Positions 24,859-49,832 of a DNA stretch of 64,000 nucleotides are shown here, one piece after another. The DNA comes from a phage. The notes beneath the pieces are model-generated. The model was not told the origin of the DNA, made no database searches, and saw nothing but the letters and a program-made list of their open reading frames with translations. The stretch lies in assembly GCA_020381345.1 (NCBI GenBank), contig GCA_020381345.1_3636.1; one strand, 5' to 3'. Every line of letters begins with the position of its first letter. The stretch's first letter is position 1. Made by a program: the position numbers and the translations under genes.

Positions 24859-24870
24859 CAGGAGGCAAAT

Positions 24871-24900
24871 AAAAAAGGGGCCGTTTGGCCCCTTTCTTTT
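24871..24900. terminator. bidirectional rho-independent terminator between convergent operons
   Basis: AAAAAA GGGGCC GTTT GGCCCC TTTCTTTTT. Confidence 0.65.
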
Positions 24901-24905
24901 TATAG

Positions 24906-25106: not shown

Positions 25107-25109
25107 TTC

Positions 25110-25517
25110 TCAGTCCTCGCATTTAACAAATTTTTCTACAGATCCACCAAGCACAGCTTGTTGTTTGATGGCACTTTCTTCATCATAGTGAATAGACTTA
25201 TGTTCCGTACCTCCAAACTTACCTGTGTGGAAGGTGTGCACCCAAATCTCTTTAGGAAGGGATTTATTCTCTTCTTCCACCAACTCCCACATTCCCCATA
25301 AGTGATCTGTGATATCTCTGATGAAATATCCCTCGCCTAGGTTTGTATTCACACTATAAGCTGATTCGTGATCTCCACAAATATAACGGAAGGCTGTGTA
25401 CTCTTTACCTGGTGTGAAGTGGGTATCCATTAGTATAGCTGTTAAAGAATAAGGGTCTCGAAAGCCCAAGAACTTTAGTTTAACAATTTCGACATTCACA
25501 CTTGCAAGATTCTCCAT
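25110..25517 (-). CDS. hypothetical protein
   Basis: 135 aa ORF in leftward operon. Confidence 0.4.
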   Translation of the reverse strand: MENLASVNVEIVKLKFLGFRDPYSLTAILMDTHFTPGKEYTAFRYICGDHESAYSVNTNLGEGYFIRDITDHLWGMWELVEEENKSLPKEIWVHTFHTGKFGGTEHKSIHYDEESAIKQQAVLGGSVEKFVKCED

Positions 25518-25680
25518 GGCAGTCTCCTCTGTTTGGTTGGTGAGATAATCCTATACAAATCTGTTGTTGGTGTCAAGATTAATTTTAAGAGATCTGAGAG
25601 GGTATTTTATTCAGGAAGGCAATCGCACAGGGTGGGGCAATTTATGAAGGCACAGGCCTCGTTTGAGGCCTTAAATTCTA

Positions 25681-26061
25681 TTATGACACTTTGACATAGC
25701 GCTCTGACAAAGCTGGGAAGCCAAAAGTAGTGCCTATACTACCATAGGCTATCCACCATTGAAGTTCATCGTGACACCATTTTCCGATCAGGAAGGTGCT
25801 GGGATAGCGGGTCAGTATTTTGGCATAAGCTTTAGGATCTGCATCTTCTGGGATAATGATGCTTGGAACATCTTTGTTATGACCACAGCAGCAGTTTAGC
25901 GTTTTCAAACCTGCTGCCCACAAACTCATGATAGGCTTAGCCATACACTTATCAAGGCACACACGTTTTTTGCCGTCACGGAGCTTTTTAGGCACATCAA
26001 CGATAACATTTTGATGCTTGGCACCTTTCACTTTCCAATTATAGGATTTACACTTGCACAT
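25681..26061 (-). CDS. Cys-rich hypothetical protein
   Basis: 126 aa; multiple Cys incl. NCCCGHN. Confidence 0.4.
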   Translation of the reverse strand: MCKCKSYNWKVKGAKHQNVIVDVPKKLRDGKKRVCLDKCMAKPIMSLWAAGLKTLNCCCGHNKDVPSIIIPEDADPKAYAKILTRYPSTFLIGKWCHDELQWWIAYGSIGTTFGFPALSERYVKVS

Positions 26062-26091
26062 TTAGTCAGTCTCCATCTAGAAAGCTATACT

Positions 26092-26298
26092 TTACTTAAA
26101 GTCTTTATCACCTGCCACGATTGCATGAATCCACTCATTGTGATGCTCAATAGCGGTGAGATGTAACATGATGTAGTGATCGTCATTGCCAAACATGATA
26201 TGATAGGCTTTGGCAGCATTTTGATATAACTTCCACATCAGGTAATGATATCTTCGCCTCATGGCCTTACTCCGGTTCAGGATCTGGGTAATCTTCAA
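26092..26298 (-). CDS. hypothetical protein
   Basis: 68 aa ORF in operon. Confidence 0.3.
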   Translation of the reverse strand: MKITQILNRSKAMRRRYHYLMWKLYQNAAKAYHIMFGNDDHYIMLHLTAIEHHNEWIHAIVAGDKDFK

Positions 26299-26737
26299 TA
26301 ATAAAGGGCCATCCGTTCCGCTTAGCCGCAGACTTATACTCGATCTCCTTCATTGCAAACTCTAACTGATTCTTAGCCGGAATACATGCCGGAGAATCAT
26401 CAATCCAGATATCTGGGTAGATATCAAACTGCGCCAGATAGGCTGCCTTCTGGACACCACCAGTATAAAACACACCAACATCGAGATCCTTACGCCAATA
26501 CTCAATGTCTACATTATCTTGAGTAATGAATCGGAAAGTCACAAGGTATACTGTCCACCCTTCCTTTTTCAAGTCCCTAATCAGGCGGGAGAAGATGAAA
26601 GGACTCGCATTAAATGTTCCATCAAAGTCAATGGCAATGATGTGTGTGCCGTGGCGTGTCTCATATGGATTGCTTGTGGTAAGATTGCTGTAGTTAAAAG
26701 GGACCTCTTCCCCGCAGTAGCTGTAGTCCATATTCAC
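26267..26737 (-). CDS. HAD-superfamily phosphatase-like protein
   Basis: Motif IIAIDFDGTF (DxDGT, HAD motif I) near N-terminus. Confidence 0.5.
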   Translation of the reverse strand: MNMDYSYCGEEVPFNYSNLTTSNPYETRHGTHIIAIDFDGTFNASPFIFSRLIRDLKKEGWTVYLVTFRFITQDNVDIEYWRKDLDVGVFYTGGVQKAAYLAQFDIYPDIWIDDSPACIPAKNQLEFAMKEIEYKSAAKRNGWPFIIEDYPDPEPE

Positions 26738-27009
26738 ACCTTCTCGTTGATAAATTTACGGGCGGTTTGGTGAGTTGTTTCTGCTGTCTTCAGAATGATA
26801 TTAATTTTATCGTCAAGATCATTCATCTCAGCAGTTAATTCAGGAATCTCTCCGGCATGCATGGTGAAATCATACATAGACATACCCAGGATCTCATTGA
26901 TTCGGCGGTTGCATTCTGCAGCACGCTGGTTCATTTTCCAAGCCAACACCAGAGCCTCTTGCGTAGCCTCCAGTGCAAAGTCTAATACGTCAGCTTCTTC
27001 TTTCGTCAT
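26734..27009 (-). CDS. hypothetical coiled-coil protein
   Basis: 91 aa ORF. Confidence 0.35.
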   Translation of the reverse strand: MTKEEADVLDFALEATQEALVLAWKMNQRAAECNRRINEILGMSMYDFTMHAGEIPELTAEMNDLDDKINIILKTAETTHQTARKFINEKV

Positions 27010-27064
27010 CTCAGTCTCTCTTGTTGTATTGTTAGTAGGTGCATGAACACCTTATATCTCACTT

Positions 27065-27631
27065 TTATTCAAACTGCAATAGCAAGTCCACCACCGCGCT
27101 AGGTCTGTCAACAAATTCCCCAGGTCCACATGCCCACAGAGGGTATCCGTCCACATACCGCCAAATCCAACCTGCAGTGTGGAGTTCGAGCAGGGCAGCA
27201 CCGTCCTTACTGTCAACCACTCTTTCCCACAGTGTTGGGCAGCGAAGCTTGAGAATCGGATCACCTCCCTTATACCCGTCCATGTAGATACCCATTGCAA
27301 AGTTCAGCATCATCTTTTTGTGCACTGATCTCTTACTGAGGGTGCTCATCACTTCCTCTTTGTGAATGTTTGTAAGCTTCTCTTTGGCTACCCGCAGATC
27401 GTTGCAACCATTGTTCAGCAGATCTTCCAGACACTTGATCCGAAGGTCGTGAATGTCTTTGTCGTGTACCGTTGGCACAGGGTCGTAGCGGTATAGCACT
27501 GTTGATACAAGGTTGCTCGGGTGTGGGTCTGACAGCAACCCATAACCCCAATACTCTTCTGTATCTGAAAGGACAAGACACCCAATGTCTCTGTCAAGCT
27601 TTCCTGTGTTGTAAGCCACATTGACCGCCAT
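27065..27631 (-). CDS. hypothetical protein
   Basis: 188 aa ORF. Confidence 0.4.
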   Translation of the reverse strand: MAVNVAYNTGKLDRDIGCLVLSDTEEYWGYGLLSDPHPSNLVSTVLYRYDPVPTVHDKDIHDLRIKCLEDLLNNGCNDLRVAKEKLTNIHKEEVMSTLSKRSVHKKMMLNFAMGIYMDGYKGGDPILKLRCPTLWERVVDSKDGAALLELHTAGWIWRYVDGYPLWACGPGEFVDRPSAVVDLLLQFE

Positions 27632-27633
27632 GA

Positions 27634-27879
27634 CTATAGCTCCACTAGCAAAGTGCTTTCAAAGTGCCGTTCATGCAGACCGTTGTAAGGGACCACTTCC
27701 ACAACGCCATCACGGACATATGGGGCCATCATGGTGGTATAATCTCCAAACGGGTTGGTATTGTCACTAACCACAACCACCTTCTGCCCTTCCTTGGCAG
27801 AGTGCCAAATAGATCTGCACTTCATCAGGTGTTCGAGAGCTCCAGGTAAAATTTTGTTACGTTCTTTACGGGTCTTCAT
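27634..27879 (-). CDS. hypothetical protein
   Basis: 81 aa ORF, coupled. Confidence 0.35.
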   Translation of the reverse strand: MKTRKERNKILPGALEHLMKCRSIWHSAKEGQKVVVVSDNTNPFGDYTTMMAPYVRDGVVEVVPYNGLHERHFESTLLVEL

Positions 27880-28325
27880 AACAGATATAGCTCCTTATGA
27901 AAGTGGTCTTTTAATTTCTCACTGAGAAACTTCTTGATACCTTCCTCTAAAGTGTTTTCGATGTAGTCCAGCTTAACTGCTTCGATGGACATATCATAGA
28001 TCGCCAGCTCTAAGCTGTCAAGTCCCATCATAGCATGAACCATAAGATTTTCATCTTCAGATACATTCAGGGGACTTCCTATAACATCTGTAGGTAGGAT
28101 AGTTTCCCAATTATTCTGGGGGGTAGTTCTCCCACCATCCACTTTACGGCGCAGTTCGAAGGTGTTCTTAGTGTAGAACACTTCATAAGAAACGATACGA
28201 CTATCGCTCTCATAATAAACGAAGTTCAGGTAGGAGCCTAGCCGCAGTCGGCAAACTTCTACCCCAAACCATTGTTTCTTATAAGAATTCAGGCTAATGC
28301 TGTCGCATTCACGCTTGCTCAACAC
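27876..28325 (-). CDS. hypothetical protein
   Basis: 149 aa ORF. Confidence 0.4.
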   Translation of the reverse strand: MLSKRECDSISLNSYKKQWFGVEVCRLRLGSYLNFVYYESDSRIVSYEVFYTKNTFELRRKVDGGRTTPQNNWETILPTDVIGSPLNVSEDENLMVHAMMGLDSLELAIYDMSIEAVKLDYIENTLEEGIKKFLSEKLKDHFHKELYLL

Positions 28326-28341
28326 GGCTATCTCCTTTTTG

Positions 28342-28575
28342 TTAATCTTCGTAAATCAAGATTTCTGCTTTAGGTTTTCGTGCTTTCAAGTCCAGCTCTA
28401 TCCAGTGCACCATAGCTGTTTCAAGAAAAACAGCTTGGATGCATCCGTCCTCAGCGTGCCCCACCAACATAACAAGATCTTCACCTTCGTCATCTGCATC
28501 ACGAACATACAGAATCTCTCCAGATTCAAAGTCTTTCACAACCTGATTGCTGGATAATTTACGAATTTTTGCCAT
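28342..28575 (-). CDS. small hypothetical protein (possible member of a 3-gene paralog set)
   Basis: 77 aa; similar size and composition to the next two genes. Confidence 0.35.
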   Translation of the reverse strand: MAKIRKLSSNQVVKDFESGEILYVRDADDEGEDLVMLVGHAEDGCIQAVFLETAMVHWIELDLKARKPKAEILIYED

Positions 28576-28576
28576 A

Positions 28577-28840
28577 TCAGAAACCCTCTAAAAAGCTCTT
28601 GTAGAAAATAATTTCAGTGTCCACACCTGTCACGATCTTATCGTTTCGGATCTCATCTGTGAGGTAGGTATCGAAACGTAGTACTTGTGTGGTATTGTTA
28701 CACATCCACTCAGCTGTGACCATTGCGAAAATCTTAGCATCTTCATTATCTGGTGTGAATGTTACCACCTCGCCGCACTTAAACTTTTCGATAGGTTGAG
28801 TGTTAGCTTTCGGTTCTGCGATAGTGATTTTCGTGGTCAT
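28577..28840 (-). CDS. small hypothetical protein
   Basis: 87 aa. Confidence 0.35.
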   Translation of the reverse strand: MTTKITIAEPKANTQPIEKFKCGEVVTFTPDNEDAKIFAMVTAEWMCNNTTQVLRFDTYLTDEIRNDKIVTGVDTEIIFYKSFLEGF

Positions 28841-29106
28841 TACTCTTCCTCCATAGTTTCACCAAATACTTCGATACGAGCATCGAGCTCGGTTGCTTTC
28901 AGCTCCCCAACAAAATCTTTTAGTTCTTTCTCGTCCAGATCGTAAGCCCACACACAAGAAGAACATGCAGATTTCACAATCAGCAGCGTAGATACACGGC
29001 CTGACTCTGTGATCATGCTCACAATGGTTCCAACAGGGAACGTGTTGATAGCTTTTTTAACTGGTCGTTCAGCTTTGATTACTACCTCTGTTGCCATAAA
29101 TAACAT
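28840..29106 (-). CDS. small hypothetical protein
   Basis: 88 aa. Confidence 0.35.
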   Translation of the reverse strand: MLFMATEVVIKAERPVKKAINTFPVGTIVSMITESGRVSTLLIVKSACSSCVWAYDLDEKELKDFVGELKATELDARIEVFGETMEEE

Positions 29107-29112
29107 CCTCTC

Positions 29113-30573
29113 TTACTTAGCGTACTCAATTAATTCCACAGTTTTCCCAAAGCTCGGGATATAATTTTTATTATACCCCTCGGTGAGAACCCATAAAGTA
29201 TCGTACTTTTTCCACTTGTTGTCAACAGCCTTTTGTTCAAAGTTATGCTCAAAGTATAGGTCTGTCAATACGATGACATCTTTTGCATTCGGTATGTTGG
29301 CATCCAGATACTCGAACACGCAAGCAGCTGTTGTGCCCCATGTTGAGTGGACCTCATAGTTGATCATCTCATCTATGTTACCGCGAGTGTATACTTTAAC
29401 CTCTCCAACCTCAGTTGACCAACAGAACATTGTAACCTTAAACTCTTTATACAGATTGCACAATCCGGTGATTTCATTGAACATTTTCTTTAAAGTTCTT
29501 TGAGAGATCGAGCCAGAAACGTCTAAAGCTACCACAATATCTATGGTGTTTTCCGGATTACGACCAGGAACAATAACGTGCTGGTTCTTGTTTATAGCCC
29601 CAACTTTTCGCATTGTGCTGGTCAAAGACCCAGATCGGCGACCAGGTTTTCTGTAGGTCAGTTCAGCCTTTCGTTTAGACAACATGCGTTGCTTGATGAT
29701 GTCTATATAATTGATTACAGGCTTACCTCTATTCTTGACAAACTCACGAACCGCCTCAGGGCAACGGCCTCCGGAAGCTTGCATTGCTGCCTCCAGCATG
29801 TCACCAGAGTCCTGCATGGCCTGATCTTTATCAGATTGACTGATTACAGGTTGTGGCTGATCATACCCCATAGCCTTTCCAAGATCATCACTGGTGCCAC
29901 CGTTACCACTCATGTGATCATCGGTTTGTCGCTTATCTCCTTGAGAGTTCTCACCTTTACCGCTCTTACTTTTACCGTTATTCTGATCTCTTTGCTTATC
30001 AAGAACTGCATAGACGTTCTCAGCAATCCATCCATGAAACTTCATGTCGCAGTAGCAGCTGGCTAAGAATCCAAAAGGCTTACCTTTCACGAACGTAGTG
30101 CTTTTCCCCTTCGGGAAGAAAACACAAGGGGGCTTGCTAAAGTCAACCACAAGACCTGTGTTGATAACGTGATCACAAGCAATATTGAACAGTTCCGGCT
30201 CAAAGCTTTTACCACGGACCAGGTGATCACAGATAATATGTCCCACCTCATGTGACAGAAGGAAGGCCACCTCTTTCACAGATTTTGGGGAATAGAAAAC
30301 TTCAGCCATCTCAAACTGCTTGTCAGTTAGAGAAGCCTTAAGAATAGCCTTGCGTTCATCAGCCAATCCCATAATGAACTCAGGACTGTAATAAATGCGT
30401 TTATGGTCGGTTGCCATGGTGGAGCACCATGTGTGGTTTTCTACGAACTGCAACCCTGACAGCAGTGTGCCATAAAACGGCAGCTTTTCAAGGAGATACA
30501 TACGTGCAGCCTGCAACATTCTCAGGGCATCATCTTTTTGTGAGGCAATGATTTCTGAACTTCTGCTATCCAT
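29113..30573 (-). CDS. metallopeptidase-like (HExxH) + von Willebrand factor A domain protein
   Basis: HEVGHIICDH zinc-protease-type motif in N-terminal half; VALDVSGSIS (DxSxS MIDAS) in C-terminal half; start placed at the second ATG (MDSRSSEI) which has a GGAG RBS; the track start at 30594 lies inside a hairpin. Confidence 0.6.
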   Translation of the reverse strand: MDSRSSEIIASQKDDALRMLQAARMYLLEKLPFYGTLLSGLQFVENHTWCSTMATDHKRIYYSPEFIMGLADERKAILKASLTDKQFEMAEVFYSPKSVKEVAFLLSHEVGHIICDHLVRGKSFEPELFNIACDHVINTGLVVDFSKPPCVFFPKGKSTTFVKGKPFGFLASCYCDMKFHGWIAENVYAVLDKQRDQNNGKSKSGKGENSQGDKRQTDDHMSGNGGTSDDLGKAMGYDQPQPVISQSDKDQAMQDSGDMLEAAMQASGGRCPEAVREFVKNRGKPVINYIDIIKQRMLSKRKAELTYRKPGRRSGSLTSTMRKVGAINKNQHVIVPGRNPENTIDIVVALDVSGSISQRTLKKMFNEITGLCNLYKEFKVTMFCWSTEVGEVKVYTRGNIDEMINYEVHSTWGTTAACVFEYLDANIPNAKDVIVLTDLYFEHNFEQKAVDNKWKKYDTLWVLTEGYNKNYIPSFGKTVELIEYAK

Positions 30574-30606
30574 TAAAACTCCAGAAGGGGCCATTGGCCC
30601 CTGTCA

Positions 30607-31650
30607 TTATTTAACGTGTTTGAAAATACCTGCCAACTCGGTCATTGTCATGCGGGTGGTCTTCATAAGATCTGTCATAGCTTTCTCCATAATTGGAGAT
30701 ACTACCATAAAGTTTCCTTTAGTGAAACCTTTATTCCAGTCGGTCACCAACAGCGGTTTAAGTCCAGCTCCGAGACGTTTACCAGTTAAAGCACAGCATT
30801 TGCGAATATACGAACTCTTAAATTGGCTGAACGATAGATCAACTTTCATACCTGCATCGTAGAACGTTTGACAATAGAAAGTGTAAGCCTTAGCAATCTC
30901 AACATCATCAGGTAGTGCAGGAACCTCTTCTGCAATCTCCTCTTCAACCACCTGAGGCTCTTTTTCCTCTTCAGAGGTCTGTTCTTCAATTTCTTCTGTC
31001 ACAGTCTCGTTTACGATGTCTGAAATGTGTTTGTTGGCTGCACGATCAGCCATGAAATTTTTAAAATCCTGCATCGGTGACATATCTTCTTCCTCTTCGT
31101 CAAATAGTGCTAGTTTATCTTCTTCTGACCCGTATTGCAAGATGAAATCTTCAAAAGTATATTCATCTTTTAATTCCTCCATACGCTCTTCGCTCAGGTG
31201 GAGCATCATCTGCTGGACAATTTTTCGATCAGTTTTGTCTTTAATCAGGATTGCAGTCTTTTTATCTACCAGACAGTCCTTCAGAGCGTTGCACCTCAAC
31301 CCTACCACACAACAATTATCAATTGCGTAAGGACCTTCATCATCTATCCGCTCCAGAGATGGGTAGAAAGGATTTCCCAGTCCGTTTTCATCTGTGTGCA
31401 TGTCGAAAGGTATAAGGGTATAGTCGCATACCCCCTCTCCTAAAAGTTTTTTACCAAATAGGAGGTATTCTTCCCACGACAGGTCGAACTCTATATCTCG
31501 TTTCCGTGCGTTATTCTGTTTGCGTCTATATTTTTTGAGCAAGCGCTCTAACTCTTCTGGTGTATAATATTTTTCAAGATTCATGAGTCGTCTCTCGTGC
31601 TCTGTAAGTGAAGAAATCGTATCAATTGTCTCAACAGATGTCAACATCAA
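30607..31650 (-). CDS. hypothetical protein with acidic linker
   Basis: 347 aa; first gene of leftward operon; glutamate-rich central segment. Confidence 0.45.
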   Translation of the reverse strand: MMLTSVETIDTISSLTEHERRLMNLEKYYTPEELERLLKKYRRKQNNARKRDIEFDLSWEEYLLFGKKLLGEGVCDYTLIPFDMHTDENGLGNPFYPSLERIDDEGPYAIDNCCVVGLRCNALKDCLVDKKTAILIKDKTDRKIVQQMMLHLSEERMEELKDEYTFEDFILQYGSEEDKLALFDEEEEDMSPMQDFKNFMADRAANKHISDIVNETVTEEIEEQTSEEEKEPQVVEEEIAEEVPALPDDVEIAKAYTFYCQTFYDAGMKVDLSFSQFKSSYIRKCCALTGKRLGAGLKPLLVTDWNKGFTKGNFMVVSPIMEKAMTDLMKTTRMTMTELAGIFKHVK

Positions 31651-31657
31651 AAACGTG

Positions 31658-31686
31658 TTGACTTTACTCTAACTCCACAATATAGT
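31658..31686 (+). promoter_or_regulatory. sigma70-like promoter for rightward middle operon
   Basis: TTGACT-17-TATAGT, ~40 nt upstream of ATG 31727 in divergent intergenic region. Confidence 0.5.
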
Positions 31687-31726
31687 GCACCCATTCGAAA
31701 GAAAACTAACATAGGAGCACTTACTT

Positions 31727-32626
31727 ATGGCAAATCTTAACAGTTTTAGTACGCGGTGGAAACAGGACATAACAACCAATCTTTCAGCTGGGGACATCCT
31801 TTCTGCAATTTACGAGGCTTTAGATGATAAAGCTACTTCAAAAGCGGTTTGTACCAACCCACTAATTCCTGTAGTGATGAAGGTTATTGAGCGTAGATTG
31901 GTATCTGGGTCTGATAAGTGGACATATTTAGATAATGAAGGACACACCTATTCCAATGGGTACGTCGATATAAAAGTAGAATACGCGGTATCATACCGCC
32001 GGAGCGGTTCTGTAACTTTCAACTTCTCTGGAGGTTTTCGATCTCTGGCTACCTCACCTTTTGTTTCCTCAGAGGAGAAGTATGAGCTGCCATTTCTTTG
32101 GATGATGGCTAACGCGACAGGAAAAACCCCCGTTAGCATCCGAGTAAAATACAACTACAACGGATCTAGTAAGATCTATGCCGAAAGTGTCTCAGCAAGT
32201 TTTTATTTTGTGATGGGGGATGGAATCCTCAAACATATAAAGATGTGCGATATGCATGATGTTATAAATGAAGTGACTGATAAGAATGTTCTAGTGAAAG
32301 ACCTCAACAATTTTTATACACCCGGAGACTATTACGTCAGCCGTCCACTGTGCATCTTTAATGCCGCACACCCTCTAGGTGAGTATTTGATCGCCAATAG
32401 CGATATTGCCAATAACCGCTTCGAGGTAGCAAGAGTTCAGAATGAGGTATTGACATCCTGCAAAAGTGGTGATAAATTTACTGATGAAGAGATGGGTGTT
32501 TTAGAAATGATGGGGTATAAATGCAGTCTTTGGGTAGATGAGGTGTTTAATGACTACATCTCCGGACAGGATATTTACCCGTTAAAGAAGTATACTGATA
32601 CAAGTTTAATTTATGCGGGGATTTGA
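31727..32626 (+). CDS. hypothetical protein
   Basis: AGGAG RBS 9 nt upstream; promoter TTGACT-17-TATAGT upstream. Confidence 0.45.
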   Translation: MANLNSFSTRWKQDITTNLSAGDILSAIYEALDDKATSKAVCTNPLIPVVMKVIERRLVSGSDKWTYLDNEGHTYSNGYVDIKVEYAVSYRRSGSVTFNFSGGFRSLATSPFVSSEEKYELPFLWMMANATGKTPVSIRVKYNYNGSSKIYAESVSASFYFVMGDGILKHIKMCDMHDVINEVTDKNVLVKDLNNFYTPGDYYVSRPLCIFNAAHPLGEYLIANSDIANNRFEVARVQNEVLTSCKSGDKFTDEEMGVLEMMGYKCSLWVDEVFNDYISGQDIYPLKKYTDTSLIYAGI

Positions 32627-40909: not shown

Positions 40910-41247
40910 GTTTGTGGAGAAATATCGTTAACTACGTGTGTGGCAATCCAACTCCTGAAGAGAAGGATGTTGTGATTCACGATTTTACTAAAAGATCTCG
41001 TGAAAAAGATCTACTGCTAACAAAGGTGACTGATAAAGATCCTGCAGTAGGGGACTGGGCAGGTTTTGCGTTTACATCGGACGAATACACCTTTAACAAA
41101 GGTGACTACCTTGTTGTGGATTTTAACGAAGACATTGAGGGTGCTGAACCTTACTATCAAACCCTTATTGTTGCAGGGTGTGTTAATCTCTCTGCAGGTA
41201 TGCACAGTTTGATTCTTTTTGAGCTTGACTCTGAAGACCTTCAGTAG
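40906..41247 (+). CDS. hypothetical protein
   Basis: 113 aa coupled ORF; hairpin follows. Confidence 0.35.
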   Translation: MSLWRNIVNYVCGNPTPEEKDVVIHDFTKRSREKDLLLTKVTDKDPAVGDWAGFAFTSDEYTFNKGDYLVVDFNEDIEGAEPYYQTLIVAGCVNLSAGMHSLILFELDSEDLQ

Positions 41248-41307
41248 TAAGATGTAAGTCTAAAGGGGAGGCACTCCTCCCCACAAAAACTAAGGAAGCA
41301 CTAAACG

Positions 41308-42633
41308 ATGAGTAAAACCAAATTAGAACTTACCTGGATAGGTAAAAACGAGCGCAAAAAGTTAGAGCCGCACATTTTGTTAGAAGATTCTAGCAAATCT
41401 TACCACAGCCAGAAAGTGACCGAAAACGATATTTTTGATAATAAACTGATTTTTGGAGATAACTTATTAGCATTGAAGGCGCTAGAGCAAGAGTATGCAG
41501 GCAAAGTGAAGTGTGTTTACATAGACCCGCCATTCAATACCGGGAGGGCTTTTGAGCACTACGATGATAGCCTGGAGCATTCCATTTGGCTGGGCTTAAT
41601 GAGGGATAGGTTAGAAATAATTCGTAATCTTCTAAGTGATGATGGGGTAATATTCGTTCACTTAGATGATTGCGAAATGGCGTATTTAAAAGTTTTGATG
41701 GACGAGATTTTTGGTCGTGCAAATCAGTTAAATACCATATCGATGACCACAAATTCCCCTTCGGGATTTAAGGCAACAGGAGCCACAGTTTTCTCCACAG
41801 CAAACTTTTTGCTTGTATATGCAAAAGATCGCACCCAGAAACCGCTTAACAAAATCTATATACCTAAAGGGTATGATACAGGATATAACAAATACCTATT
41901 AAACCCGGATGACCATTATAAAAATTGGACGTGGTGCGGTATTGCCGATGCGTTTGCAAAGGCCAATGGCTATAAAGATGCAAAAGAAGCCAAGAAAAAA
42001 CTGCCTGATACATTCGATGATGAATTAGCACAATTCGCAATTGATAATGCAGAACGTGTATTTCAATCTGTTGCAATTGGCGGTGGTGCTAAAATAAAGA
42101 GAAAAGAAACTATCGAGAAGTCAAAGAAAGATAGGGATAAGGTTTATGTACATCCAAATGAAGATGTTGAAGGATTTTATATCGCAAATGGTAGGCAAAT
42201 GGTCTTTTACTCCAACAGGCTTTTGGAAATTGACGGTGATATGCAACCTGCGGAACTAATAACTGATGTTTGGACAGACATTAGTTGGAATGGAATAGCA
42301 AATGAAGGCGGCGTTAGTTTCAAAAATGGGAAAAAACCAGAAGCGCTTTTGAAGCGAATTTTCGAAATGTGTACGCGAGAAGGCGATTTGGTATTGGATT
42401 CATTCGGTGGTTCGGGAACTACTGCTGCTGTAGCTCACAAGATGAAAAGACGTTGGATCTCCATCGAGATCGGTGATCATTGCCATACCCATATTATTCC
42501 GCGCTTGGAAAAAGTGATCGATGGGGAAGATCAAGGTGGTATTTCTAAGTCTGTAAACTGGCAAGGTGGTGGTGGCTTCCGTTATTACAAACTTGCCCCG
42601 ACCTTAATTGCGAAAGATAAGTCTGATCAATAA
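41308..42633 (+). CDS. DNA N6-adenine (or N4-cytosine) methyltransferase, beta class
   Basis: Catalytic motif IDPPFNT precedes the AdoMet motif DSFGGSGTT (beta-class order). Confidence 0.7.
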   Translation: MSKTKLELTWIGKNERKKLEPHILLEDSSKSYHSQKVTENDIFDNKLIFGDNLLALKALEQEYAGKVKCVYIDPPFNTGRAFEHYDDSLEHSIWLGLMRDRLEIIRNLLSDDGVIFVHLDDCEMAYLKVLMDEIFGRANQLNTISMTTNSPSGFKATGATVFSTANFLLVYAKDRTQKPLNKIYIPKGYDTGYNKYLLNPDDHYKNWTWCGIADAFAKANGYKDAKEAKKKLPDTFDDELAQFAIDNAERVFQSVAIGGGAKIKRKETIEKSKKDRDKVYVHPNEDVEGFYIANGRQMVFYSNRLLEIDGDMQPAELITDVWTDISWNGIANEGGVSFKNGKKPEALLKRIFEMCTREGDLVLDSFGGSGTTAAVAHKMKRRWISIEIGDHCHTHIIPRLEKVIDGEDQGGISKSVNWQGGGGFRYYKLAPTLIAKDKSDQ

Positions 42634-42646
42634 AGAGTACAATCAA

Positions 42647-42952
42647 ATGATGAAACGTTATAAACCATACACTTTTGAAATCGATTTCGAACTTGACGAT
42701 ATGTTTACTGTAGAAGCTCAGGCAGTTGTCCAGTTACCAGACTCGGATTGCCGGGATTCTGATGTTGACTATTACGGATTTAGACAAATCACCGATGTGC
42801 ATGTTTACCACAACGGTGAAGAGGTGGACTTCCACCAACTGCCAAACGATATGCGTCACTCAATTTACAAACGTGCAGCCCGTGAACTAGAGTCCTATCT
42901 GGATGCAGCGACGACAGCAGCTGCATTTGCTGAAGAAGTGGGAGGTTTCTGA
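42647..42952 (+). CDS. hypothetical protein
   Basis: ORF; start chosen at ATG beyond the methyltransferase stop. Confidence 0.3.
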   Translation: MMKRYKPYTFEIDFELDDMFTVEAQAVVQLPDSDCRDSDVDYYGFRQITDVHVYHNGEEVDFHQLPNDMRHSIYKRAARELESYLDAATTAAAFAEEVGGF

Positions 42953-43341
42953 TGATTACAGGTGTGAAGATTATCCAATACCACTTAACCAAATTGGAAG
43001 ATGCTGAAAAAGAGCTTGCAGAAGTTCTGAATAGTGGATATACTTTGCTATCATGCGCCTGCTCAGACACCTACGCTGTGTGGACACTTATCCGGAAGGA
43101 AGAGCCTGCAGGGATCTTGGTGCCAAACCCTAAGATTATTAGTGAGGTGGATGACTATCCCCAGGACGAAGGCTGGGAAGTATGGGAAGGTGGTGAAAAC
43201 CCTGCACCAGGTAAGTGGGTAAAATATAAACTACGTAGTGGTGCACAGTACGCTGACTACTCTGATGACCTAGACTGGAGTCATTCTTCACCAGGATCGT
43301 CTGCAAGTTCATATGATATCGTTGCTTTTCAGGAAGAATAA
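42952..43341 (+). CDS. hypothetical protein
   Basis: 129 aa ORF. Confidence 0.35.
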   Translation: MITGVKIIQYHLTKLEDAEKELAEVLNSGYTLLSCACSDTYAVWTLIRKEEPAGILVPNPKIISEVDDYPQDEGWEVWEGGENPAPGKWVKYKLRSGAQYADYSDDLDWSHSSPGSSASSYDIVAFQEE

Positions 43342-43353
43342 GGAGATAGTGTT

Positions 43354-43836
43354 ATGTCAGATTTTATGTGGAAAGTAGGTTACGCAGCTCCTGAAATGTG
43401 TGAGGCTTGCTTTGTGAAAATAGGCCGCGAGGATATCGACAAAGTGATCCTTAAGTTTCGTGATGTAGCTGTGATCGGCAACCGAGTGCTTAAGCACTTA
43501 AAGAATCTGAAGCTCACCAAAAAGAAGTTCTTCGGACTTTTCGAAGAGAAAGTTGATGCTTGGACCCATTGCATTCAGGAAGCTAAATCTCACTACAGTG
43601 CTATCGTTACCCCAGAACGGGTAGCCAAGATGGAAGGACTCATCAACAGCACAGAGTTTGAGTGCCTAAAGGCTGCCCTTGATAGTTATCCGAAATGCCT
43701 CAAGCACTTGGACAAGTATGTAGAAAAGGATGGGGAAATGTATCTCACCCTGGATGCATACTATGAGATGCAAGAAATTTTAAATTTAGATTTGACATTG
43801 GTATCCACCGAGTATACAATAGGTATCCGGGTTTAA
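43354..43836 (+). CDS. hypothetical protein
   Basis: 160 aa ORF; terminator follows. Confidence 0.4.
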   Translation: MSDFMWKVGYAAPEMCEACFVKIGREDIDKVILKFRDVAVIGNRVLKHLKNLKLTKKKFFGLFEEKVDAWTHCIQEAKSHYSAIVTPERVAKMEGLINSTEFECLKAALDSYPKCLKHLDKYVEKDGEMYLTLDAYYEMQEILNLDLTLVSTEYTIGIRV

Positions 43837-43842
43837 CACTAG

Positions 43843-43870
43843 GCCCTGCCCGAAAGGGTGGGGCTTTTTG
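43843..43870 (+). terminator. rho-independent terminator (repeated element, copy 1)
   Basis: GCCCTGCCCGAAAGGGTGGGGC then TTTTT; identical 22-mer at 54265. Confidence 0.55.
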
Positions 43871-43887
43871 CATTAGGAGACAGCAAA

Positions 43888-44652
43888 TTGAAATTTATCT
43901 ATAAAGAACACTACCACAAAGGTGTTGTGTGGAGTCTATTTGACGGATCTGGCGGTGCAGTCATTGACTGGGCAAAAGCTGGATATCTGTGCCTGTGCTT
44001 TAACGCAGAAGGTGCTGACCACGGCAGTTATGCAGAGGTGATCACCGATCATCCAAATATTCACTATGTAGATTATTGGATTGATCCATGGTTCCCTCAG
44101 GAAACTTTCTGCATGTACCCAGCTCCGGACTTTGTTCTTGCATTTCCTCCGTGCACCCACTTAGCGGTGTCAGGTGCTGCACACTTTAAGAAGAAGCTGG
44201 CTAAGGACCCGCTGATCCAGATTAATGCTGTAAAGGATGCTCGGGTTGCAGAAGAGTTGGGAGAGATTTACGATTGCCCGTGGCATGTAGAGAATCCTGT
44301 GGGTGTTATGTCCACACTGTGGCGCAAACCTGATTACCGTTTTCACCCTTCTGACTATGGCGGGTATTTACCGGAGGATGATGTAAACCCCTGGTTTCCT
44401 GAATTTATAGCTCCACGTGATGCCTATCCAAAAATAACTTGCGGCTGGATAGGTAATGGATTTATAATCCCGGCCACAAAACCTGTCCCGCAAATAGTTG
44501 ACGCGGTTAGCGGGTATTCCATGCAACACGCCAAGCTGGGTGGAAAGAGTGCAAGAACGAAGATGATCCGAAGCCTCACACCACGTGGCTGGGCAAAAGC
44601 CGTATTCTTAGCAAACGAGCCTGTAGTAAGGAGCAGAATTAATGGGAAGTAA
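43888..44652 (+). CDS. compact DNA cytosine-5 methyltransferase-like protein
   Basis: Motif I LFDGSGG (FxGxGG), motif IV FPPCTHLAVSGA (PC), motif VI HVENPVG (ENV); TTG start after GGAGA RBS proposed because the track start lies inside the terminator hairpin; only ~255 aa so target-recognition region is minimal. Confidence 0.45.
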   Translation: MKFIYKEHYHKGVVWSLFDGSGGAVIDWAKAGYLCLCFNAEGADHGSYAEVITDHPNIHYVDYWIDPWFPQETFCMYPAPDFVLAFPPCTHLAVSGAAHFKKKLAKDPLIQINAVKDARVAEELGEIYDCPWHVENPVGVMSTLWRKPDYRFHPSDYGGYLPEDDVNPWFPEFIAPRDAYPKITCGWIGNGFIIPATKPVPQIVDAVSGYSMQHAKLGGKSARTKMIRSLTPRGWAKAVFLANEPVVRSRINGK

Positions 44653-46720
44653 ATTTATGGCATCTGCATACAACCGTTTCGGTGAGCCAAACCCGAAAGC
44701 AACTAAGTATAAAAGTGGGGGAAGTGTGAAACGAGACTATCGTGATGAAAAAGAGGTTGAAACTGTAGAGACTGTTTTAGAAAATACTAAAATTGTCCCT
44801 GTTCCACAACAAAATATCGGTCTGATGGCTGCACAATATTTTGGTGTGCGATCAGCATTGTCTCAAGAAGACGGTGTGACAGTTACTGCAACATATTTCC
44901 CATATTACGACCGCTACGGAAATCTGTCAGGTTTCAAAAAGCGTGACTGGACGATTCCTAAAGAGCAAAGGGGCCATTTCTCAGTTGTTGGCATAGTAAA
45001 GGCTAACTCCCAGATGTTTGGTCAAAAGCTGTGTGCATCTTCCAACAACCGTAAGCAGATTAATGTTTGTGAGGGAGAAGGTGATGTTATTGCAGCATGG
45101 CAGGCTGCATATCAGATACAAGTAAAAGGGATTCTCACCAACGCTAAAGCCCCGGCAAAGGTGAAACAGTGGGCTAAAGAGGTCCAGGACGGGATCGATG
45201 CAGTTATCAACGGGGGTGATCTGGCAGGAAAACCCTGCCTGCCTTTTGTTGGAATTAACTGTGGATGTGCAAACGCAGTAGACACTTTTGCAAACAATGA
45301 GAAATTTATCCGTAGCTACGGAACAGTGGTCCTTGCAATGGACAACGATGCAGCTAACGAGGTAGAGAAGCAAAAACACGTTATCAAAGGTGTTGAAGCC
45401 ACACATAATATCGCGGCATTTTTGATGGCGGATAACGTTTACCACGTAGAATATCCTGGTGAAGTAAACGATCCTGACGGTGTAAAAGATATCCGTGACA
45501 TGCTGAAGGCTAAAAAGCTGGAAGATATTGTAAACATGTTCCGGCATCCTGTTAAGTATGTGCCTGATGCTGTGTCGGATTTAGAAGACTTCTCTATCGA
45601 ATCTTTGCGGAAAAAGACTTCCAACGGGGTAGATATTAGCGCAGAGTTCCCAAAACTGCAAAAAATGCTAAAAGGCTTGCACAAAGGGACACTCGTAATG
45701 CTTACAGGTCCATCAGGGGGTGGTAAAACAACTGTAGCTAAAAAACTGGAACACTGTATTGCAAGATACTTAATGGACCCGACATGCCCGAAGGCCGATG
45801 ACTACGAAGAAGATGATCGTCTATGCATGATCCATCTTGAGGAGGACCCAGAGGAAGCAATTAACTCCTTGTATGCAAACCAGTTAGGGTTTGATGTTAA
45901 AGAGTTTGTTGAAGATCCTAGCCAGTTTTTAACTGATCAAGAACACGCAGAGATTCACCAATCATGGGCAAAAGCTGGAAAAATCAAAGTGTTCAAACAT
46001 TTCGGATCTATTCCGGTGGACGAGTTGATTACCAAGCTTAAGCAAATGGTTTGCCTGTACCATTGTCGTTATATTGTGCTGGATCACCTGTCCATGGTAA
46101 TTTCAGGTCTTAATGTTAAGGATGAGCGAAAAGAACTGGACATAGCTATGACCCAACTGGCTGCGTTTTGTAAGCAGTTTAATGTGTTTATCTTGGTGAT
46201 CGCTCACCTCAAACGTACAGAGATTGTGCCTCCTAAAGACAAGGATGGTAACCCGTTACCTTTCTGGTATCCTGTGCGAAAAGAGAATTTGCGAGGATCG
46301 GCTGGGCTTGAACAGTTGAGTTGGGTAGTCATAGGTGTCGAGGCCGAAGAAATGGTGGATCGTTCTCGTGGGCGTGTCCGTTTAGTAGGTCTTAAAAACC
46401 GTCCAGCAAAAACATTGGGTATTGCAGACACTTTGGTTATGGACCCACATACAGGTAAGTTCCATGATGCCAGTAATTGGTACTGGGACAAAGAAATGCA
46501 AATGTTTACAGATGGAGAAGGTGGGGAGGTTGTTTGGAGACCTCAGGCTATGTTTGAGGATCAGGAGCATGCAGTTGTAGAAACACCTATGGGCAAGGTT
46601 GTGGCTGATAAGGTTGTAACTCCTACTGTTAAGCCTGTTGACACGCAGGAAGACCTCCAGTACGATGATCCGTCCTCTGACCATGTTCCTGGTTTTGAGG
46701 ATGATGAAACACCTTTTTAA
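44642..46720 (+). CDS. bifunctional TOPRIM primase / DnaB-type helicase (T7 gp4-like) lacking N-terminal zinc ribbon
   Basis: TOPRIM Glu (VCEGEGDVIA) and DxD (LAMDNDAANE); Walker A LTGPSGGGKTT; acidic C-terminal tail ending FEDDETPF. Confidence 0.7.
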   Translation: MGSKFMASAYNRFGEPNPKATKYKSGGSVKRDYRDEKEVETVETVLENTKIVPVPQQNIGLMAAQYFGVRSALSQEDGVTVTATYFPYYDRYGNLSGFKKRDWTIPKEQRGHFSVVGIVKANSQMFGQKLCASSNNRKQINVCEGEGDVIAAWQAAYQIQVKGILTNAKAPAKVKQWAKEVQDGIDAVINGGDLAGKPCLPFVGINCGCANAVDTFANNEKFIRSYGTVVLAMDNDAANEVEKQKHVIKGVEATHNIAAFLMADNVYHVEYPGEVNDPDGVKDIRDMLKAKKLEDIVNMFRHPVKYVPDAVSDLEDFSIESLRKKTSNGVDISAEFPKLQKMLKGLHKGTLVMLTGPSGGGKTTVAKKLEHCIARYLMDPTCPKADDYEEDDRLCMIHLEEDPEEAINSLYANQLGFDVKEFVEDPSQFLTDQEHAEIHQSWAKAGKIKVFKHFGSIPVDELITKLKQMVCLYHCRYIVLDHLSMVISGLNVKDERKELDIAMTQLAAFCKQFNVFILVIAHLKRTEIVPPKDKDGNPLPFWYPVRKENLRGSAGLEQLSWVVIGVEAEEMVDRSRGRVRLVGLKNRPAKTLGIADTLVMDPHTGKFHDASNWYWDKEMQMFTDGEGGEVVWRPQAMFEDQEHAVVETPMGKVVADKVVTPTVKPVDTQEDLQYDDPSSDHVPGFEDDETPF

Positions 46721-46778: not shown

Positions 46779-49202
46779 ATGAGCATGTGGTCGTTCGATT
46801 TTGAGTCATCCGGTTTACTGGAAGACCCAGATCTTTATTATCACTGCGGTCTGTTTAAAGAGCTGAATAAGAACCGTTTTATGCTGTTCCTTCCTCTAAA
46901 TGACCGCACACACTACTCCGAGGAGGATATAGAAAAGGCTAAGAACTTCATTCTGGCAAAGAAAACTCTTTATAAAGATTTTGAAGTTCGCATAGCAGAT
47001 TTTTCGGAGTTGGAAGGTTGGCTTACAGGCAATTCCGACTGGTCACCAACAGCTTTGAACTGCCATAACTGCTACAGTTATGACTTTATGCTGATGGAAA
47101 GATTATCCGGTATTCATTTTGACATGTTCCGTGATCCTAAATGCATGGGGACTATCAACGACCACCAGGTTAACCTGTTTGATACGTTGGCGATGAGTCG
47201 AATCTTGTGGCCTGATCGCCCTTTACCAAAAGGTTGTCCGGACTCTGTATTCAACCCGGTCACTAAGAAAATGCAGCCTGTTGGTCCTCACGGCCTTATG
47301 GCATGGGGCTATGCTCTTGGTAACCAGAAAGTTCAAATTGATGACTGGCGCGATCTTCCGTTGTGGAAGTATGTGGATCGTGTATTTGAGGACGTTATCA
47401 TCCAGGAGCTGCTCTGGAAAGAACTGGTAGCGGAATCAAAAGGTGTATTCTACGGCAAGTCTGACATGCAGAACTTTATGTACGATCCTGCCAAAGAGAA
47501 GCCAAAAGGGTTCAAGAAGATCACCTGGAAGAACGCATTACGCCGAGGCATGCTGCAGCACTTCCTGATGGAGCTGCAGGCCCGTCAGGGTGTGTATTTC
47601 GACATAGACGGGGCTATTGCTTTACGTGACCGCTGTGATGCGTGGATGAAAGAGATCGCTGATCGTGTTGAACCTCAACTTCCTTTAAAAGAGTTATCAA
47701 TATCTCAGCGGCCTAAATTCCCTGAAAAGCCGTTCAACCAAGATGGGACAATTTCCAATAATGGCTGGAAATGGTTAAAAGATAAGCTTGGCTATCCTGT
47801 AGATATGAGCGCTTTAGAGTTCAAAGCCCCGCCTAAGCGAGCATTTACCTCCACAGGAGATGTCAGTAAGATGGGGATAAAATGGTGTGAAGAGATGGGC
47901 TGCAAAGACCCCGATAAGATGGCTGATTTCTTGAGAGGCTATATTAAGGGCACCTCAACACCACAACCTTTACCTAAAGAGCTAATGGATCAGGCAATAA
48001 GTGATCTACAGCAGAAGCGAATGCCGGACTGCAAGATACCTATGAAAATCAGCAATCAGGACGACATTAAGCGATACCTGATCAGTGCTGGTTGGCTTCC
48101 GACAATGTGGAGAACTAAGGATGTAACTAAAGACAGCAAGAAGAAAGCTCTACCTGATGCAGATGTTGATGCACGAGTATATGCATATATGGACGAGCTT
48201 TTAGAGTCAGAGTATTGTGACCTGATTATCAACTTCTGGAACAAAACTGATGCTAAGTTCCAGACAACCGTGCACAAGTTCCGAAGCTTTCCTAACTCCG
48301 AAAGGATTAAAAAGGAAGTATTCGGGAAAATACGTAGAAAAGCCAGGGCACTTATTACTTCTCCGCAACTGAAAGATACGTTTGGACACCTATGTCCGAA
48401 TCTTGAAAAATTGAACGGAGAGATGGCTAAAGATATCGTCTTGTGGTTATCATTGCGAAACCGCAGATCGGTCCTTGATCCAATCAAGGAGGATAAGGTT
48501 GATACTGGTCTTCTTAATCACCCACGCTTGAAGATTGACCATAAGCTTCCTGCTAAAAGTTCTGGGCTAACAAACACTTCCAGACAGAAACACAGTATTT
48601 GTGCAAACATGCCTAAACCATCTCCTAAAGTGGTTATGGGTAAAGAGATGCGTAGTCTATGGGGTGTTCCTCCGGGATACTTTGAGATCGGTATTGACGG
48701 GTCCAACTTAGAGCAGCTTATCGGAGCTTGGGGTGCCTTTGAGTTCGACAACGGCTTGTATTATGATGTTGTAAGTAACGGGGACGCACACCAAAACAAT
48801 GCTGAGGCATATACAAAAGTAGCAGGTAGAGAGGTGTCTCGTAACGACGGTAAACCTATCACGTATGGGGTTATGTACGGGGCACAAAAAGATAAAGTTG
48901 CAGACATGCTGGATATCTCTCCAGAGTTGGGACAAAGGGTAATCGATGCACTCTGGGATGCCAACCCTGGTCTTAAGGGGCGCAAAGAGGATCTGGAGAA
49001 ATTCTGGGAAGCAACAGGTAAGAAGTTTATCTACTCTTTTGATGGTCATGCTATCTGGACCCGATCTAAACACTCTTTACTTAATGCATACCAACAGAAT
49101 GGTGGTGCATCGCTGTGTGACTTAGTTGGGATACTCATGCACCACCAAATGGTGAAGCGTGGGTGGTACGATGAAGGTGTTCGTCGTATTATTTATTACC
49201 AT
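46779..49202 (+). CDS. DNA polymerase, family A (T7 gp5-like), exon 1
   Basis: Exo I FDFESSG, Exo II-like NCHNCYSYD, motif A EIGIDGSNLE, motif B KPITYGVMYGAQ; ORF stops 1 codon after the His of motif C (..IIYYH K stop). Confidence 0.7.
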
Positions 49203-49478
49203 AAATAACATTGTGGCTTCATAGAGTAATCTATGTCGAATAACCTCTTTAACTGCGGGAAGCCTAAACCTTATGGCAAGGTAATCCGCAACGAAGCGCT
49301 CAAAAGAGCGAACGCTCAGAGGCCATTCCGAAAGGAAGTAGACCAGCAAGTGCGGTCGAAATGGGAGGATTCCTGTGGTTGCTTATCATAGGAATATGAG
49401 ATGGTCCGATCCTACGTGAAAACGTATGGCTATGCACGTAATGGTGCGGGGTAGCTTAACGACCTACCTGAACTATTG
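49203..49478 (+). ncRNA. group I self-splicing intron (no ORF) interrupting DNA polymerase motif C
   Basis: P-like AACTGCGGGAAG (49251), Q-like AATCCGCAAC (49283), R-like GCTCAGAGGCC (49314) in canonical order; P/Q complementary; upstream exon ends in T, intron ends in G; three in-frame stops; joining exons restores ..YYHDEYQLQV (H-D-E motif C). Confidence 0.6.
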
Positions 49479-49832
49479 GATGAGTACCAACTTCAGGTCC
49501 CTGACACACCTAAGTATAAGACTGTGTACACCTTCGACACAATTGAAGAACTGGAAGCATTTAAGGCAGAGCAGGAAGCCAAACTTCATGTGTTCGACGG
49601 TCATAAGTACAAAAAGGCACGCAAGGATGAAAACGGAAACGAGGTGGTTGACAGAGACGGAAACACGGTGTACGATCCTATCCTGAACGATGACGGAAAG
49701 CTTGAACTTATCTGGAGCCCTGTGGGCGAGATGGTGGTACATTGCTTCTGGCAAGCTTCTAAAATGATGGGAGTCCCGTTCCAGATCACAGGTGAATACT
49801 TGTGTGGTCGTAACTGGGGTGATTGTCACTAA
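49479..49832 (+). CDS. DNA polymerase, family A, exon 2 (C-terminal segment)
   Basis: Same frame as exon 1; begins GAT GAG (D-E of HDE); C-terminus ..CGRNWGDCH resembles T7 pol C-terminus ..GPNWAICH. Confidence 0.6.
   Translation, partial: DEYQLQVPDTPKYKTVYTFDTIEELEAFKAEQEAKLHVFDGHKYKKARKDENGNEVVDRDGNTVYDPILNDDGKLELIWSPVGEMVVHCFWQASKMMGVPFQITGEYLCGRNWGDCH

Follow-up and report, generated by a model that had tools for sequence, protein, structure and literature searches.

The window, by which we mean the whole stretch of DNA analyzed here (64,000 nucleotides [nt] of phage DNA, GenBank assembly GCA_020381345.1, contig GCA_020381345.1_3636.1), encodes two DNA methyltransferases between positions 41308 and 44652, to which we refer as open reading frame (ORF) A and ORF B. 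The 4-kb region 41000–45000 shares 97–98.5% identity with over 80 complete genomes of rV5-like Escherichia coli myophages, including nomo, MaxBurger, PDX, and rV5, and by this sequence similarity the window phage is a Vequintavirus. As evidenced below, the two genes probably encode orphan DNA methyltransferases that are independent of each other and differ in history: ORF A a captured Mod subunit that has lost its C-terminal domain (CTD), and ORF B a compact C5 enzyme of the core genome.

An earlier note on this DNA, made from its letters, had proposed two orphan DNA methyltransferases of different chemistry, and the profile searches bear this out, with PF01555 and MTase_III matched by ORF A, and phrog_757 together with the conserved Cys and Glu assigned to ORF B. 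The observation of such a pair is correct, and it was already annotated and published; the origin of ORF A is the new detail. In MaxBurger, ORF A is annotated as "putative N6 adenine methyltransferase" and ORF B as "Dcm-like C5 cytosine methyltransferase," with both genes located between a DNA helicase gene and the genes for primase-helicase and DNA polymerase. Papers on the related genera Certrevirus and Septuagintavirus report genes for an adenine and a cytosine methylase in these phages, which by their account probably bear both marks (PMC7344957, PMC11370258). The paper describing the rV5 genome contains no discussion of the methylases, and our search of the published literature found no Vequintavirus methylome data.

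Identity and Origin of ORF A

The features of ORF A and of the cassette in which it lies are the following:

41265–41282, plus strand: intergenic hairpin GGGGAGG-CACT-CCTCCCC upstream of ORF A (read from the sequence; identical at the empty site of phage HeinrichReichert)
41308–42649, plus strand: apparently captured bacterial mod cassette, 1342 nt, with its insertion point precisely at the ATG of the small ORF downstream (from the empty-site alignment)
41308–42633, plus strand: ORF A, 441 amino acids (aa), predicted CTD-less type III Mod-like beta-class N6-adenine DNA methyltransferase (from PF01555, PADLOC MTase_III, Mod matches in the PDB, and the ratio of nonsynonymous to synonymous substitution rates, dN/dS)
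41524–41535, plus strand: motif IV, DPPF (catalytic), aa 73–76 of ORF A (from the sequence)
42403–42423, plus strand: motif I, FGGSGTT (S-adenosylmethionine [AdoMet] binding), aa 366–372 of ORF A (from the sequence)
42623–42649, plus strand: 3′ truncation zone of mod (from the DNA alignment to bacterial mod)

ORF A matches PF01555 (N6_N4_Mtase) over residues 67–393 with an E-value of 1.5e-42 and 146.5 bits (cut-off 26.7). The DPPF preceding FGGSGTT that the earlier note had read is found as described, and this places motif IV N-terminal to motif I with the target-recognition domain (TRD) between them, the motif order of the beta class; ORF A is the sole carrier of the [DNS]PP[YFWH] motif among the window ORFs of at least 150 aa. 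The PADLOC model MTase_III (PDLC03636) is matched with an E-value of 6.9e-205, covering model positions 2–444 of 575 only, and the closest PDB chains are Mod subunits (6k0w, and EcoP15I Mod 4zcf). The strength of the MTase_III match for ORF A and of the phrog_757 match for ORF B (E-value 7.3e-87) argues for true homology of both proteins and not for chance motifs. On its sequence, ORF A is a beta-class amino-methyltransferase, and specifically a type III Mod.

Like the type III Mod subunits of known structure (EcoP15I Mod, 4ZCF; 6K0W), ORF A has an N-terminal domain (NTD), a methyltransferase (MTase) core, an inserted TRD, and motif IV before motif I, and its nearest relatives adjoin a Res-like helicase-nuclease. 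Unlike EcoP15I Mod, it lacks the Res-contacting CTD of ~130 residues, the length by which its bacterial homologs exceed it, and the res gene found beside these homologs is absent from the window. It resembles phage orphan methyltransferases of restriction–modification (RM) origin (e.g., the Dam-like enzymes) in that it comes without a nuclease in a lytic phage and would premethylate progeny DNA. It differs from them in that donor gene, insertion site, empty site, and lost domain can all be read from the sequence, a resolution that we did not find in the papers we consulted.

Two further records touch on this protein. Campylobacter phage CP8 (KF148616.1 40075–41253, locus L092) encodes a 392-aa Mod-like methylase with 38% identity to ORF A; as this protein also has neither CTD nor an accompanying res gene, CTD-less Mod orphans may recur in unrelated phages. 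The PLSDB entry CP057073.1 (137,565 bp), listed as an E. coli "plasmid" and obtained from pooled cattle faeces, is of Vequintavirus size and has a gene for a 441-aa truncated Mod of 98.9% identity; the record probably represents phage DNA that was entered as a plasmid, or else a phage in the carrier state.

To place the origin of ORF A we compared it with bacterial genomes. A scan of one genome per bacterial species gave 80 loci with a homolog of 540–620 aa that aligns to phage residues 1 to ~438, with a same-strand ORF of 890–950 aa directly 3′ of it and usually an ORF of ~950–990 aa on its 5′ side. In the two loci whose neighbors were scanned (L007 and L011), the downstream ORF is a REase_III (E-values 3.7e-191 and 4.3e-197); upstream lies an ORF with a match to a DrmD-like SNF2 helicase, and the space between is taken up by Abi or OLD genes. 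The closest bacterial loci, which include Catenovulum and a gammaproteobacterial metagenome-assembled genome, show 92–95% protein identity to ORF A, and DNA identity to the closest bacterial mod extends from the start codon to window position ~42646, where it ends.

The donor type is also present in the host species of the phage. A chromosomal match to ORF A exists in 29 of 5426 complete E. coli genomes, in 24 of these with 90–95% nt identity over at least 80% of the query; the cassette and the chromosomal mod of these 24 genomes are 95% identical over 1318 nt. In E. coli 2014C-3011 (L087, NZ_CP027591.1 5062284–5071633), the homolog is found on an island adjoining tRNA-Sec that encodes a helix-turn-helix (HTH) protein, an SNF2 protein, an Abi protein, the 568-aa methyltransferase, and a 912-aa DEAD/DEAH helicase. 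Between the Mod proteins of phage and E. coli, ~15 of 438 positions differ, five of these in the central region (TRD). Judged from these alignments, the ORF A cassette is the first ~438 codons of mod from a type III(-like) Mod+Res defense island found in E. coli.

The islands themselves differ from classical type III systems in that they hold, in addition, a DrmD-like SNF2 helicase as well as Abi or OLD genes. An assignment to MADS was rejected, the MADS1 HTH match being barely above its cut-off (81.3 vs. 80), as was an assignment to DISARM, for which the DrmD matches remained below cut-off (697 vs. 950); given these marginal or subthreshold matches, we call the donor no more than a type III-like Mod+Res island that includes an SNF2 helicase. 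Its layout (DrmD-like SNF2 helicase, variable Abi/OLD/AbiU genes, type III-like Mod, Res-like helicase-nuclease) is recurrent over many phyla (loci L007–L050 and L087) and fits cleanly neither classical type III RM nor DISARM; in E. coli it lies beside tRNA-Sec with an HTH gene in front.

The insertion can be followed at nucleotide level owing to phages in which the site is empty. About a quarter of the Vequintavirus records match a 3-kb query as two segments with a combined span of only 1665 nt, indicating that these lack ORF A. The empty site of HeinrichReichert reads ...AAGGAAGCACTAAACG-ATG-AAACGTTAT..., with the ATG being the start of a small ORF; in the window, the same left flank joins ATG-AGT-AAA of ORF A, and the small ORF, again as ATG-AAACGTTAT, resumes at 42650. 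Alignment of the two delimits the cassette to 1342 nt (41308–42649), with (G)ATG microhomology on both sides. The upstream hairpin is followed by AAGGAAG (41292–41298), which resembles a ribosome-binding site (RBS), and both elements serve the small ORF in phages without ORF A; as the cassette is inserted exactly on the start codon of that gene, ORF A uses the RBS of the resident gene. In sequence terms, the insertion is an illegitimate recombination onto a phage gene start codon.

At the 3′ end, 11 nt of the bacterial mod are missing between 42623 and 42624; the resulting frameshift leads to the stop codon TAA at 42631–42633, and the leftover mod sequence GATCAATAAAGAGTACAA at the end of the cassette provides an RBS-like AAAGAG for the displaced small ORF. 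A second type of 3′ junction is found in YN3 (L088) and ECP2309 (L089), with the left junction unchanged and the protein ending in ...KDKFDSEEDLE*; both types end ORF A 3–9 codons past the same KDK. Pairwise distances are compatible with two captures as well as with later remodeling of one. In YN3 and ECP2309, the upstream hairpin and RBS recur behind the end of the gene as a diverged direct repeat, such that the cassette is bracketed by repeats of ~50 nt, which may reflect an intergenic recombination hotspot or a second capture.

Maintenance and Proposed Role of ORF A

ORF A is present in 88 Vequintavirus-type phage records (at least 90% identity), where it aligns over essentially all 441 residues with the frame intact at 441–447 aa. 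Among phage alleles differing by 1–9% of their nucleotides, Nei–Gojobori dN/dS is 0.07–0.16, the same range as between bacterial alleles. This constraint, together with the full-length alignment of the 88 copies, indicates that ORF A is maintained and is not a pseudogene. A functionless, decaying remnant of a captured gene, as the truncation through a frameshifting 11-nt deletion and the existence of natural phages that dispense with ORF A might suggest, is very improbable given the intact frame in all 88 records, a dN/dS of 0.07–0.16 between alleles differing at up to 8% of nucleotides, and the preservation of every catalytic motif.

What was lost can be projected onto EcoP15I, in which the Mod subunit consists of the MTase domain (62–262 and 390–516), the TRD (263–384), and the CTD (539–644) (PMC4490356). 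The Mod dimer of this enzyme forms through the NTD and MTase domains and is a stand-alone methyltransferase (Mod2), and the CTD of ModA contacts Res extensively (PMC4490356). In the alignment to EcoP15I Mod, the KDK end of ORF A corresponds to residue ~521. Since this falls in the linker preceding the CTD, ORF A retains the parts for dimerization, recognition, and methylation and loses the Res-binding domain.

We propose that ORF A would act as a stand-alone Mod dimer, N6-methylating one strand of the donor system's site on replicating phage DNA. It would be incapable of recruiting Res, and progeny phages would reach hosts carrying the donor system already protected. The ~95% nt identity to an E. 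coli island mod strengthens this antirestriction reading. We infer that protection would be limited to the donor-type system and that loss of the CTD may have been selected. That selection produced a "Res-blind" ORF A, which could even be a dominant-negative partner of the host's ~96%-identical Mod, we consider a doubtful extension; if true, the phage would turn the recognition subunit of a defense system into its inhibitor.

Two points weigh against this reconstruction. The role of the CTD is borrowed from EcoP15I, which is only a distant relative of ORF A (E-value 2.7e-24, partial alignment), and the donor island, with its SNF2 helicase and Abi genes, may not act as a classical type III system.

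A related proposal goes further and makes ORF A mainly a subunit poison: a heterodimer with the host Mod would hold Res poorly and so disarm the system on first contact, an effect compatible with, and perhaps additive to, a role as methylase. It accords with the removal of exactly the CTD in two junction variants, with the division of labor in EcoP15I between NTD and MTase domains (dimerization) and ModA CTD (Res contacts), and with the very high identity of ORF A to the E. coli Mod (~96% in the dimerization surfaces). However, purifying selection is strong on the catalytic motifs and the TRD (dN/dS 0.07–0.16), and a pure decoy would have no need of such constraint over its full length; a heterodimer of ORF A and host Mod would still have one CTD; and ORF A is expressed after DNA entry, which is late for the infecting genome. 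We consequently give little weight to poisoning as the main function and retain the methylase as the preferred role. The reconstruction of ORF A as a Res-blind Mod derived from an E. coli defense island, drawn as it is from comparison of sequences, is a modest addition to what was known.

ORF B and the Compact Dcm-Like Family

The features assigned to ORF B are the following:

43841–43872, plus strand: hairpin resembling an intrinsic terminator (43841–43866) followed by a T run, just upstream of ORF B (from the terminator scan and the sequence)
43888–44652, plus strand: ORF B, compact Dcm-like C5-cytosine methyltransferase, 254 aa, with TTG start and RBS AGGAGA at 43875–43880
43939–43956, plus strand: motif I, FDGSGG, aa 18–23 (from the sequence)
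44146–44154, plus strand: motif IV, PPC, aa 87–89, with Cys89 invariant in the family (from sequence and alignment)
44290–44298, plus strand: equivalent of motif VI, ENP (in VENPVG), aa 135–137, with Glu135 invariant (from sequence and alignment)
44428–44439, plus strand: PKIT, with Lys182 and Thr184 where the canonical motif VIII has R-x-R; corresponds to K175/K176 of K42 Dcm, the second Lys being Ile (from the alignment)
44566–44589, plus strand: IRSLTPRG, resembling motif IX, only ~40 residues past the motif VIII strand (from sequence and alignment)

The earlier note had started this gene at GTG 43858, which would give a version of 264 aa. This codon lies inside the terminator hairpin, and TTG 43888 sits 7 nt after AGGAGA; as the 254-aa form is also the one annotated in MaxBurger, TTG 43888 is likely the true start. 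It should be noted that the promoter and terminator scan as a whole was not above shuffled expectation (11 promoters vs. 10.1; 5 terminators vs. 4.7), and that only the hairpin 43841–43866 was used from it. Two of the three motifs named in that note, FDGSGG and PPC, are present in the protein; the string ENV is absent, its place being taken by the ENP of VENPVG.

The family of ORF B (phrog_757) is large, with 3522 homologs at an E-value of at most 0.001 in a database clustered at 90%, and 2018 representatives at 50% clustering, mostly of 210–260 aa. In a tblastn search, members were found in 1502 of 50,697 phage records, including Drexlerviridae, Dhillonvirus, Kagunavirus, Klebsiella siphoviruses, and Vequintavirinae, and the genes often adjoin a helicase gene. 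An alignment of 79 diverse members shows C89, E135, P154, Y180, W187, and P195 to be invariant, and F86, P87, N136, P137, D178, K182, T184, R228, S229, P232, and G234 to be conserved in at least 90%. The catalytic Cys, which the earlier note had left to be checked by alignment, is thus present and without exception among these members. R177 and D178 are also conserved near the K182-I-T184 strand, and a conserved insertion of ~20 residues (YGGYLPEDD..P.FP..I..RDAYPK) separates the strands of the motif VIII hairpin.

The protein is short, as that note had pointed out, and its further view that this is unusual does not apply within the family, given the more than 3500 homologs of ~210–260 aa and a 53%-identical member that is reported to be an active writer of 5-methylcytosine (5mC). 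With only ~40 residues between the motif VIII hairpin and the IX-like IRSLTPRG, the shortness reflects a minimal target-recognition region common to the family. The specificity of the enzyme may be reduced, as that note had considered. A Pfam scan of nine longer or fused members and of P0121 found a single HNH as the sole partner domain.

Compared with canonical C5-methyltransferases (E. coli Dcm, M.HhaI, and M.HaeIII; PF00145) and DNMT3A/B, ORF B has ENP in place of ENV and K-x-T in place of R-x-R, carries the ~20-residue insertion in the motif VIII hairpin, has no recognizable GN motif X, and spans only ~40 residues from motif VIII to IX. By sequence, phmmer of ORF B against the PDB gave noise only, a narrow family profile (A1) found DNMT3B and M.HaeIII only at an E-value of ~0.1, and hhalign of the family against E. 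coli Dcm aligned just 26 columns around PPC with a probability of 0.3%. Structural comparison places DNMT3A/B closest and recovers the fold of the C5-methyltransferases. ORF B is a protein of the C5-cytosine methyltransferase fold with catalytic Cys (PPC), Glu (ENP), and a minimal TRD, and resembles the DNMT3 catalytic domain.

An indication of activity comes from a preprint on retron Ec86 (bioRxiv 10.1101/2023.08.16.553469), in which a 711-bp "Dcm-like C5 cytosine methyltransferase" had been lost from every escaper of phage K42, itself 95% identical to KarlJaspers/Bas06. Expressing K42 Dcm increased the 5mC of the multicopy single-stranded DNA (msDNA) of the retron, as measured by liquid chromatography coupled to mass spectrometry (LC-MS), and was toxic only with the retron, and the mutant C82A/E128A/K175A/K176A, in which the four residues were changed only together, was inert (bioRxiv 10.1101/2023.08.16.553469). 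KarlJaspers bas06_0055 (711 bp) carries the four residues that were mutated in K42 Dcm (C82, E128, K175, K176) under the same numbers, and ORF B is 53% identical to it over 235 aa (E-value 4e-86), with C89, E135, and K182 kept and Ile183 at the fourth position. ORF B shares with the K42/KarlJaspers Dcm the compact family, the Cys/Glu/Lys spacing, and the DNMT3A-like model that the preprint authors also used; it differs in having Ile183 for K176 and in being encoded by a 137-kb myovirus and not a 51-kb siphovirus.

By homology, ORF B would transfer a methyl group from AdoMet to the C5 of cytosine, and this might protect the phage against cytosine-sensitive nucleases while exposing it to sensors of foreign methylation such as retron Ec86. 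Several observations count against this reading. ORF B has no match in Pfam (E-values up to 0.1, including PF00145), NCBIfam, or PADLOC, and the broad 79-member profile (A4) finds no C5-methyltransferase in the PDB by sequence, so that even the weak matches of the narrow profile are lost. The R-x-R of motif VIII is replaced by K-x-T, with Ile at the second Lys mutated in K42 Dcm. The preprint assumed CCWGG as site by analogy with the host Dcm and checked it solely by mutation of the msDNA, and a dcm+ MG1655 host did not trigger the retron (bioRxiv 10.1101/2023.08.16.553469); as the host enzyme did not trigger it, the site or substrate of the phage enzyme is probably not that of host Dcm. CCWGG is also the most depleted 5-mer of the window (110 observed vs. 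158 expected, ratio 0.70), which is not what full self-protection at CCWGG would predict.

The inner-C deamination products of CCWGG occur at expectation, and these k-mer statistics, being too weak and ambiguous, assign no methylation site. Among other k-mers of the window, depletion of 4-mers is strongest for GTAC and CTAG, GGATCC occurs at 4 sites where 15.7 would be expected, and GATC is at expectation.

In this phage, ORF B might not write 5mC in DNA and might instead act on RNA or tRNA like DNMT2, use another cofactor (e.g., carboxy-S-adenosylmethionine), or have a replication or regulatory role unconnected with restriction. We think this unlikely, as LC-MS showed an increase of 5mC in DNA with the 53%-identical K42 enzyme and the top structural matches, DNMT3A/B, are DNA enzymes; a C5-cytosine DNA methyltransferase remains our preferred assignment.

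Relation of the Two Genes and Restriction Evasion

The genes between the two methyltransferases are the following:

42650–42952, plus strand: small ORF of 100 aa of unknown function (phrog_4240), its start codon being the cassette insertion point
42952–43836, plus strand: two ORFs of unknown function, 42952–43341 (phrog_11995) and 43354–43836 (phrog_12900), between the methyltransferase genes

ORF A and ORF B are thus separated by three ORFs of unknown function and the terminator. In the window, the pair is neighbored by the genes for a PIF1/Dda-like helicase, a primase-helicase, and the DNA polymerase and by four small ORFs of unknown function. In agreement with the earlier note, no restriction or nuclease partner was seen near them in the window by Pfam, PHROG, and PADLOC profile scans or in the ORF list; the same scans gave no nuclease or defense match for 42952–43341 and 43354–43836.

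Within the genus, ORF B occurs in essentially all of ~117 Vequintavirus records and ORF A in 88. Being present in about three-quarters of the genus and throughout it, respectively, the two genes are not coinherited. The earlier note had combined both enzymes into a multilayered self-modification of phage DNA for restriction evasion. Of this, the antirestriction reading is strengthened for ORF A as a ~95% nt copy of an island mod, and the coordinated system is not supported, in view of the separate histories and of the restriction phenotype of the subfamily. A deliberate joint system for broad evasion would be consistent with both genes being orphans in the replication module with the same direction of transcription, and papers on related genera infer likewise (PMC7344957, PMC11370258). 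The unequal distribution, the three unrelated ORFs and the terminator that separate the genes, and the exceptional RM sensitivity of the subfamily in the BASEL assays make it improbable.

The BASEL data bear on self-protection in general, as the Vequintavirinae were found to be "exceptionally susceptible" to six RM systems, two each of type I, II, and III (PMC8594841), which speaks against any wide effect of either methylase. Given this susceptibility, the protection that either enzyme may confer would be narrow and site-specific. As none of the six is the donor system of ORF A, the result limits the breadth of protection and does not refute the model of two independent orphan methyltransferases.

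The added value of the locus lies in the capture of ORF A, for which a donor system is found in the phage's own host species and the insertion and its empty site are resolved to the nucleotide. Phages of both kinds, bearing the cassette or lacking it, occur in nature, several of them in the public BASEL collection, and provide a ready-made natural experiment that could gauge what one stolen methylase is worth against one defense island, and whether loss of the Res-binding domain is adaptive. The compact Dcm-like family linked to activation of retron Ec86 is also a core gene of the large rV5-like myoviruses, and for this reason rV5-like phages, which are used in therapy and biocontrol cocktails, may be sensed by methylation-triggered defenses.

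Some observations concern the phage and its records more generally. Sixteen GenBank records labeled "Campylobacter phage" (MG0656xx, host C. jejuni, ~135–143 kb) are 97–98% identical to window 41000–45000 and look like mislabeled or contaminant rV5-like E. coli phages. The GC skew of the window is negative at ~24000–32000 and positive elsewhere, which marks a block of minus-strand genes. Within the DNA polymerase gene (46779–49832), a group I intron is found at 49193–49428 on the plus strand (Rfam RF00028, 64.7 bits vs. a gathering score of 50, E-value 4.4e-16); the polymerase ORF reaches a stop at 49208 after 809 aa and is resumed in ORF 49476–49832, whereas the MaxBurger polymerase is uninterrupted at 925 aa and does not have the ~276-nt insert.

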